Shown piece by piece: positions 32,545 through 43,513 of a stretch of DNA of 64,000 nt (its first letter is position 1; every line of letters begins with the position of its first letter). Source of the stretch: Fibrobacteria bacterium (lineage in GTDB: Bacteria; Fibrobacterota; Chitinivibrionia; Chitinivibrionales; FEN-1185). The translations under genes and the position numbers were made by a program. The DNA is taken from the NCBI GenBank assembly GCA_037447435.1, contig JBBIGR010000004.1, forward strand, positions 128,001-192,000. Direction: 5' to 3'. The notes under the pieces were generated by a model that made no database searches, had not been told where the DNA came from, and worked only from the letters and a program-made list of their open reading frames with translations.

Positions 32545-32667
32545 AATATACCACAATCTCTACAATAATTCATCAACTATTTCAATAAAAATGTAAACAA
32601 ATATTAGGTTTTTTAGGGTAAAAAACCGATTTTTTCCAATTCAAAACGGTAGTAATTTTGTGAACAA
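32545..32667 (-). promoter_or_regulatory. Promoter of the TIGR02147 operon with paired boxes
   Basis: TTGTTCACA (32667-32659), TTGTTTACA (32600-32592), -10 TATATT (32550-32545). Confidence 0.6.
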
Positions 32668-32683
32668 TAAAATACAGGGAGGA

Positions 32684-32709
32684 GTAGAGACGCAGCATGC
32701 TGCGTCTCT
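32684..32709. repeat. GTAG-type REP-like palindrome
   Basis: GTAG head; AGAGACGCAGCATGCTGCGTCTCT (32686-32709) is a perfect 24-bp palindrome downstream of galM. Confidence 0.7.
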
Positions 32710-32738
32710 CGAAAACCCGCGCAGTGTAAATACAACAA

Positions 32739-33905
32739 CTACTGAATGGAAAACCTCAGAATCGTTTTCGTCGAATAGGATTCATTCGGTTTTAATGTTG
32801 TTGTGGGAAATGTCGGATGATGAGGGGAATCGGGAAAATGTTCCGTTTCCAGACAAACGGCAAAATGTTTATCATAGCGCTTATTGCTTTTTCCCACGAT
32901 TGTGGAATCGAGCCAATTTCCCGTATACAATTGTATGCCCGGTTCGGTTGTTAAAATTTCCATCACCCTACCGCTAGACCGATCATATAACCGTGCGGCT
33001 AAAGCGGGTTCCTTGGCTTTTCCGTTTAAAACATAATTATGATCATAGCCTTTCCCAATGATAAGCTGAGTATCGCTCGCATTTATCCTCGAGCCGATCG
33101 CCATCGGGTTCTTGAAATCGAACGGCGTGTTCGCAACGCTTCGAAACTCACCGGTAGGAATGCAAAACTCGTCGATGGGCGTATACGCGTCGGCATTGAT
33201 ATAAAGTTCATGGTTTAGGATGGTACCGTTTCCGGCACCCGCAAGATTATAATAGGAATGATTTGTTACGTTCACCACTGTTTCCTTGTCGGTTTTCGCC
33301 CTACATTCCATATCGAATTCATTGGCGTTTGACAAAGTATACGTTACGGTGATCGAAAGATTTCCGGGATACCCTTCTTCCCCGTCTTTGCTCAGATACG
33401 ACAATGTTACGCCGCCCAAAGACCCCGATCTGAACTCCTTGGCATCCCAAACGACCTTATCGAAACCAATGATTCCGCCGTGTAAGTGATTCGGTGAATT
33501 GTTTATTGGAAGCGAATAGGTTTTGCCGCCTATTGTCAATTTCCCTTTGGCTATGCGGTTGGCATATCTACCGACAATACCGCCGATATGCGCCGTTTGT
33601 TTTTCATACTGAGAAACACTATCGCAACCGAGAACGACATCGTCGAATTTCCCCGTTTTGCCGGGCACCTTCATCGAGGAAACGATGGCGCCGTACGACA
33701 GTATGGAAACCTCCATACCGTTAGAATTGGTCAATATAAACTTATACACGTCTTCGCCGGATACGGTTTTTCCGAACGATTCCTTTTGAATGGAAACCAA
33801 GCGTTTTCCCGGGCGTAGTACAGGGCGTTCGGCAGCAAATACGGTTGCCCCGCCGTGGCTTATTCCAAGCAAACAAATAACCATTATGCTCTTGCGAAAT
33901 ATCAT
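32739..33905 (-). CDS. galM: Aldose 1-epimerase (mutarotase) with signal peptide
   Basis: GRYANRIA, NHLHGG, EEGYPG, TNHSYYNL, GYDHNY, CLETEHFPDSP; N-terminal export signal ending VFA. Confidence 0.95.
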   Translation of the reverse strand: MIFRKSIMVICLLGISHGGATVFAAERPVLRPGKRLVSIQKESFGKTVSGEDVYKFILTNSNGMEVSILSYGAIVSSMKVPGKTGKFDDVVLGCDSVSQYEKQTAHIGGIVGRYANRIAKGKLTIGGKTYSLPINNSPNHLHGGIIGFDKVVWDAKEFRSGSLGGVTLSYLSKDGEEGYPGNLSITVTYTLSNANEFDMECRAKTDKETVVNVTNHSYYNLAGAGNGTILNHELYINADAYTPIDEFCIPTGEFRSVANTPFDFKNPMAIGSRINASDTQLIIGKGYDHNYVLNGKAKEPALAARLYDRSSGRVMEILTTEPGIQLYTGNWLDSTIVGKSNKRYDKHFAVCLETEHFPDSPHHPTFPTTTLKPNESYSTKTILRFSIQ

Positions 33906-33924
33906 GGGAACACTTCCTTTTACG

Positions 33925-43100: not shown

Positions 43101-43221
43101 CTCTTCCGGAAATCACCGGTTGATCGTAGACCGCAACTCAATCGGTAAATCTGCGGGGTTTTATATTTTGAGCATCGAACAGAACGGAAACAAGCAATTG
43201 TTCCCGGTTATTTTCAAGTAA
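40111..43221 (+). CDS. Secreted GH87 alpha-1,3-glucanase/mycodextranase-like enzyme (CBM35/6, two CARDB, GH87, CTD)
   Basis: YEAENA..EHTGFSGTGYV (CBM); two PDLLI..ISW.PS.P..G (CARDB); GAQVPW.EYQAEDG..GEASGRKAV..IPDA.GGG..RKIYDE; beta-helix RIRNTGADGIN, RNTGDDGFA; GGAG SD before ATG 40111. Confidence 0.88.
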   Translation: MRINFRIKPLAFAAATFVSLFVYGQIMAATDYEAENAVLAGGANVSTEHTGFSGTGYVQGYDLGNVSASTVFSVNADAAGYYDITLRYGNGYGASSLSVYVNNVKAVVTQLASTGSWTDWSTKKETFLLKSGANTITYKYDTGDLARINLDKITVQPTTDLKPDLLISDISWTPSAPKEGDAVTFTATIQNSGNAPSPAILHKVLFKINNQNIATATDQTKAIAVGTSATATATTTWTAAHGSYSVMAIADPDTTIAEFNESNNSFTKIITLSQLQGPDLLIQSISWSPSNPAAGSPVSFKVIIQNQGLDATSANAVSVNLSINSSQTLTGTLTGQLAAGASATVAMTGTWTAVKGTVVLVATVDPQNAISESFEGNNSLTQKFFIGRGAQVPWIEYQAEDGILAGGAKVVGPSRVYGTPAGEASGRKAVLLDQTNASVSWIASASANSIVIRNCIPDAHGGGGITTPIGLYINGQHKADITLSSEHSWLYGKDNDPQTENPSNGQARKIYDESRMLFKDFSISVGDTVMLRKDASDNAAYNYIDFIDLEQVAPPIPIPTGYISITDANQTWKPAVPDDSSGCDNALYMCMTQAQNGKYAGVYIPPGTFIQKQKQQAAGVKIQGAGMWYSMLYCPDKNEGDWGTTGFIITGDNNEFRDFSLYGWGGARTVGGKAFCSNSHKNMVLERMWIEHVTCAYWVGGGGESTNLHVKDCRIRNTGADGINLCNGSLNCLIENCHARNTGDDGFAIWSATDGYGHPCTNNIIRNCTVEFPWRAACFAIYGGDGNRIENCLGIDALTYPGLTVSSEFNPHPMDSATVDGITLIRCGAHYFIGYDYEGYFGAIWLRADLPNTNGITIRNADVIDPSYSGIQFQGAGTFSNLLLENVTVSNPTTDCIEVKAGTTGSATLRNVQLVSDANNVPRTVNNASATFKITEEGVGVLSPYAFSKFANPIVSQRGAKIIIEFTVPQGAAIGKSVKISMFQVNGKRLCLYDQQFSSGNHRLIVDRNSIGKSAGFYILSIEQNGNKQLFPVIFK

Positions 43222-43237
43222 CGGTTCTTGTTTTACA

Positions 43238-43275
43238 AAAAGGAATATCCGCATCCAAAGCCGGATATTCCTTTT
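43238..43275 (+). terminator. Intrinsic terminator after GH87
   Basis: AAAAGGAATATCCG / CGGATATTCCTTTT 14-bp stem followed by AT-rich sequence. Confidence 0.85.
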
Positions 43276-43383
43276 ATATTATAAAAATACAATCTTTTTA
43301 CTTCGCACTTTCTTGCCGACTCCCCCTCCTCAAGTTTGAGCCAATTCATTTCTAACCGAATCGAGGTAACGGCTCCAATCTTT

Positions 43384-43513
43384 TTGTTCACTTTAATTTA
43401 CTATTACATTCTCTTTTTAATGCCTAATTTGGCTTTTTTTGTTTATTTACAGCTATTTTGTTCACTTTTTTTAAATATTTTTTCACAAATTAGCAAAATA
43501 ATTTTTGTATATT
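43384..43513 (+). promoter_or_regulatory. Promoter of the 43582 gene with paired boxes
   Basis: TTGTTCACT (43384-43392), TTGTTCACT (43458-43466), -10 TATATT (43508-43513). Confidence 0.65.

Follow-up and report, generated by a model that had tools for sequence, protein, structure and literature searches.

Within a 64,000-nt stretch of DNA from a Fibrobacteria bacterium (assembly GCA_037447435.1, contig JBBIGR010000004.1, positions 128,001 to 192,000; hereafter the window), four predicted promoters of one carbohydrate gene cluster carry the same pair of oriented boxes at a near-constant distance from a predicted TATATT -10 element. We propose, from comparison of sequences and at a probability of roughly two in three, that the cluster's own TIGR02147/DUF4423 protein binds these four box pairs and activates its own predicted promoter together with those of three units of predicted alpha-glucan-degrading genes. 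A preliminary description of this DNA had listed the TIGR02147 gene as a mere target, and it is likely to be the regulator. The boxes occur in one orientation and with a characteristic spacing, are confined to this locus, and co-occur across genomes with one type of predicted recognition helix; because the box tracks one TIGR02147 subfamily in this way, the cluster's copy likely binds the boxes and turns the genes on.

One layout at four promoters

Re-reading the window confirmed all 12 coordinates previously assigned to the boxes and -10 elements of the four promoters (Table 1), which precede the regulator gene, a GH31 gene, a GH99-like gene, and the gene for a 310-aa protein. In that order, re-measurement again placed the two boxes 67, 74, 75, and 74 nt apart and the proximal box 50, 49, 49, and 50 nt before the -10 element, with GTATATT at the -10 in all four cases and every box on the coding strand. 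The description of the boxes as TTGTTCACW holds exactly for the four distal copies but for only one of the four proximal copies, with the other three having one mismatch; the proximal copies read TTGTTTACA at the regulator promoter, CTGTTCACA at GH31, TAGTTCACA at the GH99-like gene, and TTGTTCACT at the 310-aa gene. The GH99-like promoter region also holds two extra TATATT hexamers (38544 and 38564, plus strand), and as the one at 38544 sits 50 nt past the distal box, two in-register promoters may be stacked there.

As a bare word, TTGTTCACW is modestly enriched in the window (5 found vs 1.14 expected, with 2 of 100 shuffles reaching 5). The 5.05-Mb genome contains 136 TTGTTCAC sites, of which 24 are intergenic as decided by a simple open reading frame caller, and 5 of those 24 fall in this 11 kb. 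A layout rule derived from these same four promoters (both boxes with ≤1 mismatch and 60-90 apart, the proximal one 48-51 before TATAWT) was then applied genome-wide, and this search with the spacing constraint upheld the proposed shared architecture, returning 5 of 1513 upstream regions, namely the four described here and one more, which precedes a different TIGR02147 gene (contig C37). The layout appeared in none of 30 dinucleotide shuffles of all 1513 regions, never in reverse orientation, and in 0 of 2000 shuffles for each of the four regions. Alignment of 27 sites gave a consensus that is W-rich, then Y/T-T-GTTCAC, then 6-8 A/T, with no second half-site in those 27 sites. No GTTCAC..GTGAAC repeat occurs within the window and 3 such repeats occur in the genome. 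At G000 C6:120525, an intergenic GTTCAC-N18-GTGAAC stands before the gene for a 739-aa secreted-looking protein in an arrangement like that in L132, L136, L137, and L138, and this site is a possible distant target.

With regard to the core promoter, the three canonical promoters that had been reported elsewhere in the window do exist (TTGAC-17-(-10) at 29382, 53277, and 61015, all on the minus strand), and TTG at -35 is enriched genome-wide (55/221 vs 7/85 in a shuffle), which together indicate that the sigma70 consensus is in use. The -35 regions of the four box-bearing promoters match that consensus at just 2-3 of 6 positions. Generic promoter and terminator scans did no better than chance (28 found vs 27.8 and 19 vs 19.5, respectively).

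Recognition helix and DNA word across relatives

The regulator scores 288 bits to TIGR02147 (cut-off 50) and 133.7 bits to PF14394 (cut-off 30), which makes it a family member above both cut-offs, and a profile search of the 99.6% complete genome gave 27 DUF4423 matches. A DUF4423 match at G000 C28:60981-61495 is split across two frames and is a possible frameshifted paralogue. An AlphaFold model of the regulator (128 sequences, predicted local distance difference test score 91, predicted template modeling score 0.68, with a low-confidence linker near residues 101-110) consists of helix-turn-helix (HTH)-type and small helical parts, with a predicted XRE-type HTH at residues ~8-94 that would hold the recognition helix PGHITWII (43-50), an ArsR-like winged HTH at ~111-190, and a C-terminal domain. 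Modeled residues 8-94 match the XRE-type structure 3pxp (Z 9.0, root-mean-square deviation [rmsd] 3.0, 82 aligned) and, at Z 7.6-8.2, HigA and DdrO; residues 111-190 match the ArsR-type winged HTH 2p4w (Z 9.0). Residues 112-269 match Kfla_6221 (4g6q) at a middling score (Z 7.4, rmsd 5.9, 145 aligned; Foldseek probability 0.99, E 0.03), a protein that has no XRE domain and gives no function. Atlas searches with the regulator returned XRE-labelled leads only.

Evaluating relatives of this protein revealed a co-occurrence of helix and word. Relatives belong to Fibrobacterota records, among them Chitinivibrionales and Chitinispirillaceae, and at least one was present in 35 of the 41 genomes searched, with a maximum of 41 matches per genome. 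Filtering at 90% N-terminal identity left 162 of 205 hits, of which the 147 with at least 250 nt of upstream DNA were counted. Across these 147 non-redundant loci, GTTCAC lies upstream of 15/15 with the helix GHITWI[IL]QG vs 17/132 others (6 of those 17 being a single clade with another helix), and when scored by the residue pair T47-W48 it is found in 16/17 vs 16/130, with W48 being the alignment column that carries most information on its presence. The metagenome scan had been seeded with the helix pattern and not with the DNA word. The 15 same-helix proteins share 35-100% identity and have differing neighbour genes, and their upstream DNA is mostly unalignable such that an alignment at E 1e-3 exists for just 6 of 105 pairs.

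Box pairs follow the same gene at the scale of whole genomes. Pattern searches of five genomes with a same-helix paralogue returned 11 box pairs; 9 immediately precede that gene, and of the other two one seems to fall within coding DNA and one is intergenic at a different place. In five congeneric genomes that have no such paralogue at E 1e-17, the 56-86 spacing pattern, the only one applied to them, matched once, before the other GTTCAC-using paralogue. In the genome of the window, the cluster gene is the sole paralogue recovered with a G-x-[IF]TW helix. On a tree of 39 rows built without the HTH domain, the sister group of the window clade (support 98/95) has a changed helix and lacks GTTCAC in 9/9 (one with short upstream DNA), and same-helix clades more distant than this sister group keep the word. 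At locus L100, where the regulator is 69% identical, an orthologue (71%) of the cluster's alpha-1,3-glucanase adjoins and has a box pair of its own, 76 apart and 50 before TATGTT.

Several DUF4423 genes of the genome have their own repeated words upstream (21 loci listed), and in a prospective test five other paralogues served as queries against 81 genomes and the 27 relatives returned were read. TGTTCAC was found in none of the 27. The word of paralogue C34 (TGGAACC) forms an exact pair in 4 of 6 same-helix relatives; three helix-changed C34 relatives lack this pair, and two of the three have a TGTTACC pair. The C24 word (TGTATAC) is paired in 2/2 relatives, the C37 word (TGTTTAC) is present as a single copy in 3/3, and other helix groups carry other words, for example GTGTTG in 8/11. 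The clade with the helix SAF[LF]xYVIEG (G000 C34:52332; L020, L022, L025, L061, L067, L112) has a GTTCAC-N4-GTGAAC-like palindrome and, ~65 nt further on, a second box immediately after the -10, which reads as an activate-then-repress layout.

The word of the C37 paralogue, TGTTTACCG, also occurs as a pair in the window itself (9499-9508 and 9576-9585, plus strand, 77 nt apart), before a major facilitator superfamily gene at 9600, and no in-register -10 was found for this pair. Similar pairs stand at C59:1205 (73 apart, 49 to TATATT), at C4:121140 (99 apart), and, as TGTTTACT, at C3:147411 (57 apart, 50 to TATATT), and these dispersed pairs are a possible second regulon.

Geometry, mechanism, and competing explanations

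Among the same-helix loci, the proximal box precedes the -10 by 49-50 nt at seven promoters and by 37-41 nt at seven others, with one locus having none in range. To describe the family as a whole, we used 160 loci (85% identity filter, one duplicate row), of which 42 rows carry an exactly repeated TG-starting 7-mer 55-125 apart (shuffle mean 3.4; controls 42/1144). A predicted -10-like hexamer lies 25-80 nt downstream at 25 of these 42 promoters, and its distances fall at 37-42, 48-50, 58-61, or 67-70, a ladder with R 0.74 at a period of 10.5 that was reached by 0 of 20000 random sets and that keeps p 0.00025 when collapsed to 14 lineages. Such one-turn steps imply contact with polymerase from the same DNA face, and class I activation by CRP is reported to peak at one-turn steps as well (PMC4132738). 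The distance between boxes is looser: it peaks family-wide at 73-78 (16/41) over a wide range, and for the proximal pair of same-helix relatives it spans 65-121 nt. The preliminary description had proposed a fixed, in-phase upstream site, and this holds up only in part, with phasing in the window clade being weak (Monte Carlo p 0.018; 0.066 without near-duplicates) and a fixed seven-turn spacing being rejected as it is not kept among same-helix relatives. Its proposal of a regulon with an oriented, non-palindromic site at a fixed place before the -10 is supported, with activation being the likeliest mode given the ladder. A generic best-direct-repeat score over 92 loci yielded mostly chance GC-rich repeats and was replaced by the word tests.

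A mechanism consistent with these observations would have the N-terminal XRE-type HTH read TGTTCAC and then the A/T tract, with the proximal copy near -58 placing the protein on the DNA face of the sigma70 polymerase and recruiting it in the manner of class I activators. Some 6-9 turns away, the distal copy would bind a second subunit or dimer cooperatively, probably through bending or looping of the A/T-rich spacer, and the regulator would control its own gene through the boxes of its own promoter. The lipoprotein gene behind it may be part of the same device: its start overlaps the regulator's stop here and overlaps the regulator's end in 14/14 same-helix loci examined (-1 to -17), and GG[AV][ST]ET[TVSG]N follows the lipoprotein cysteine in the same 14/14, although this motif may be merely the first strand of a conserved domain. 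We speculate that the translationally coupled lipoprotein is the likeliest sensor. Same-helix regulators L097, L098, L103, L109, and L073 adjoin differing cargo (GH2, GH9, GH44, GH116), with L097 having neighbours that are not carbohydrate-active enzymes though its regulator is 94% identical over the matched part. Such differing cargo suggests that the module moves between loci, and the regulator-lipoprotein pair with its promoter may be a movable module that gains local targets when boxes arise in neighbouring promoters.

Several results weigh against binding and activation by this protein. The kin that make up the counts are not independent, with one independent pair on well-supported branches and four on the best tree, too few for an independent-pairs sign test (p 1). 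Relative L085 (GHITWIFQG) is without GTTCAC, four same-helix relatives use an inverted repeat with a 17-19 nt spacer, and the SAF[LF]xYVIEG clade pairs with the same GTTCAC as a palindrome; because two helix types thus go with GTTCAC and some relatives use inverted repeats, the helix-word code is not one-to-one, though it is real. The word-less sister group may have ceased to autoregulate entirely, and most of its members are from GC-rich genomes whose intergenic DNA is short. In the prospective test, two of the six same-helix C34 relatives were without the exact pair (one near match, one none), and the C26 word was in 0/2 relatives, both with altered helices. The C52 word (TGTATCA) was paired in 1/11 relatives and 1/3 of those with the SPVFLKLV helix; the relative that keeps it is the one with an identical helix, and most of the others show a GTAT-type palindrome when read by eye. 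As for the protein, Foldseek of the model against the PDB returned nothing at E 0.001, a fold Z of 9 is barely above the common range, and sequence matches to the XRE structures C.BclI and lambda CI are weak (E 0.067). The 7-mer pattern for the ladder was picked after the words had been seen, and two of the promoters each offered two distances, from which one was taken (59 of 30/59; 42 of 42/39). Lastly, poor -35 elements are common in the genome (152/221 GTATAHT candidates match TTGACA at ≤3/6), and two of the four promoters (TIGR02147 and GH99-like) have a TGn extended -10, which needs no -35, such that the missing -35 is weak evidence of activation.

If the TIGR02147 protein does bind, it might still repress, or act both ways, with the boxes looping to block polymerase until a signal arrives, an outcome we regard as unlikely. 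XRE-type autoregulators commonly repress and repression through looping is known, the box that directly follows the -10 in the SAF[LF]xYVIEG clade occupies a repressor position, and the GTATATT at 38564 stands directly before the proximal box of the GH99-like region; the box-to-box peak at 73-78 and the two extended -10 elements would also fit. However, both window boxes are placed farther upstream than the -35 region that goes with the in-register -10, all four of those -35 regions are poor, and a steric block needs no same-face contact, which the one-turn ladder implies. That the binder is instead some factor from a different locus (SusR-like, CRP-like, LexA, or a response regulator), with the TIGR02147 gene a mere target, seems to us quite improbable. 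Here the geometry does resemble the direct repeats that Ravcheev et al. (2013, PMC3878776) predicted 67 or 77 bp apart (6-7 turns) in the SusR-like regulons of Bacteroides, relatives could share a word by having inherited its promoter, GTTCAC occurs with two helix types, and a few box pairs are distant from every TIGR02147 gene. Yet in six genomes the pairs keep to the neighbourhood of the same-helix gene, unlike the sites of a global factor, several clades have a different word where the helix differs, boxes are present at 0/3 of the GH31 and glucanase paralogues at other genomic sites, and upstream of recA there is neither TGTTCAC nor a box pair. SusR as binder was rejected with 0 PF19904 matches in the 99.6% complete genome (the control matched in B. 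thetaiotaomicron), and a LexA/SOS box was rejected as well, the recA upstream being without a site and no true lexA being recovered by motif search.

Least credible, and largely refuted already by the helix-word counts, genome searches, and shuffles, is the idea that the layout has no binder and either arose by chance in A/T-rich sequence or is what is left of one promoter that was duplicated. The four promoter regions are indeed 65-74% A/T, short stretches among them align weakly, three proximal boxes are mismatched, and the layout rule came from these very promoters. Against this, the layout is absent from all shuffles and from the reverse orientation, and same-helix relatives have retained the word in upstream DNA that for the most part cannot be aligned.

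Cluster genes, known systems, and implications

The families of its genes suggest that the cluster likely serves alpha-glucan use (Table 1). Its third box-bearing gene had been called GH71/99-like and scores as GH99 but not as GH71, and atlas searches with the 310-aa protein found only sorting-tail look-alikes. The inverted repeat between galM and the regulator promoter is absent from the output of the terminator scan. The ~480-aa proteins without a Pfam match form a family with 10 paralogues at E ≤1e-15 in this genome, and two family members lie in the window (33925-35367 and 3133-4482), each adjoining glycoside hydrolase genes. On the minus strand at 44615-52829 stands a sulfate assimilation cluster with a sulfite reductase-TusA fusion and DsrE-like, JAB, and ThiF genes.

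Table 1. Genes and predicted promoter elements of the cluster, numbered from the first letter of the window
Feature	Position	Strand	Basis or remark
Predicted lipoprotein, 553 aa	30026..31687	-	DUF2341 + LamG; GGASETTN after Cys
TIGR02147/DUF4423 gene, 275 aa, likely cognate regulator	31687..32514	-	TIGR02147, PF14394, model, fold matches
Predicted -10 TATATT with TGn extension, regulator promoter	32545..32550	-	
Proximal box TTGTTTACA, regulator promoter	32592..32600	-	
Distal box TTGTTCACA, regulator promoter	32659..32667	-	
GC-rich inverted repeat between galM and regulator promoter	32685..32712	.	possible terminator
Aldose 1-epimerase (galM)	32739..33935	-	likely last gene of GH31 operon
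480-aa protein	33925..35367	-	likely co-transcribed with GH31; no Pfam/NCBIfam family
GH31 alpha-glucosidase-family protein	35498..38221	-	likely first gene of operon; Pfam; best PDB match 5x7o, E 2.8e-102
Predicted -10 TATATT, GH31 promoter	38324..38329	-	
Proximal box CTGTTCACA, GH31 promoter	38370..38378	-	
Distal box TTGTTCACA, GH31 promoter	38444..38452	-	
Distal box TTGTTCACT, GH99-like promoter	38494..38502	+	
Proximal box TAGTTCACA, GH99-like promoter	38569..38577	+	
Predicted -10 TATATT with TGn, GH99-like promoter	38618..38623	+	alternatives 38544, 38564
GH99-like hydrolase with C-terminal sorting tail	38740..40056	+	PF16317, 39.7 bits (cut-off 33); PDB 4acy, E 1.7e-6
Alpha-1,3-glucanase-type protein, CBM35 + CARDB	40111..43221	+	likely operon gene two; PF22815/PF22816; PDB 6k0m, E 2.6e-67
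Distal box TTGTTCACT, promoter of 310-aa protein gene	43384..43392	+	
Proximal box TTGTTCACT, promoter of 310-aa protein gene	43458..43466	+	
Predicted -10 TATATT, promoter of 310-aa protein gene	43508..43513	+	
310-aa protein with weak sorting-tail match	43582..44514	+	no catalytic family found

The proposed regulon shares features with several known systems. XRE-type regulators (C proteins, lambda CI, MmyB-like) resemble it in their N-terminal domain (C.BclI and CI at E 0.07; 3pxp at Z 9.0) and in the autoregulated two-gene unit, but they lack the added winged HTH. Controller proteins of this type and CI bind closely spaced palindromes, whereas the window boxes are without a second half-site; palindromes do occur in other TIGR02147 clades. 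Like the sites of class I activators such as CRP, the boxes sit upstream of the -35 and step by single turns from the predicted -10s; CRP differs in being a global dimer on a palindrome, whereas the sites here are local, single oriented words in widely spaced pairs, and no CRP-type or other palindrome was found around the window boxes. Direct-repeat operators of AraC and LytTR regulators have repeat units ~21 bp apart. The same unit of ~21 bp is reported for operators of hybrid two-component systems (PMC3878776). A 21-bp tandem repeat of this kind was rejected for the window, where the spacings are 67-75 and just one of the four, by eye, has a partial +21 copy.

There is a likeness to SusR-like regulons, with window repeats at comparable distances upstream of carbohydrate genes. 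SusR acts on alpha-glucans, SusR-like regulons are local polysaccharide regulons with paralogue-specific words that correlate with protein similarity, and SusR proteins are described as large membrane-anchored sensors confined to Bacteroidetes (PMC3878776). The candidate here differs in being a 275-aa protein with two HTH folds, a spacing of 65 to ~120, and a sigma70-type promoter, and we propose a local regulon that operates in the SusR manner and is positioned as in class I activation, without being a member of SusR. More tentatively, and with rather more doubt than belief, TIGR02147-lipoprotein pairs may be an undescribed class of signal-responsive activators, a Fibrobacterota counterpart of SusR, hybrid two-component systems, and extracytoplasmic function sigma factors. 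Each of dozens of paralogues per genome would then have its own 7-bp word, read via a variable recognition helix, would bridge boxes 6-9 turns apart, and would take its signal from the coupled lipoprotein though the regulator itself has no sensor domain.

Our literature search, which left most subscription journals and bioRxiv supplements uncovered, found no function for TIGR02147/DUF4423 or a relevant Fibrobacterota regulator, and the one DUF4423 mention found was a table row in a Bdellovibrio proteome (PMC12546842). For this family we now propose a word, a promoter geometry, and targets. Fibrobacterota are major polysaccharide degraders in which TIGR02147 relatives are widespread, and with a cognate word, a promoter geometry, and a set of four target promoters, a testable function becomes directly accessible using one small protein and short DNA probes. 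The findings suggest how Fibrobacterota may control carbohydrate-degrading genes without SusR and, if true, the helix-word code would allow regulons to be deduced from genome sequence throughout a cellulolytic phylum in which very little is known of gene control.

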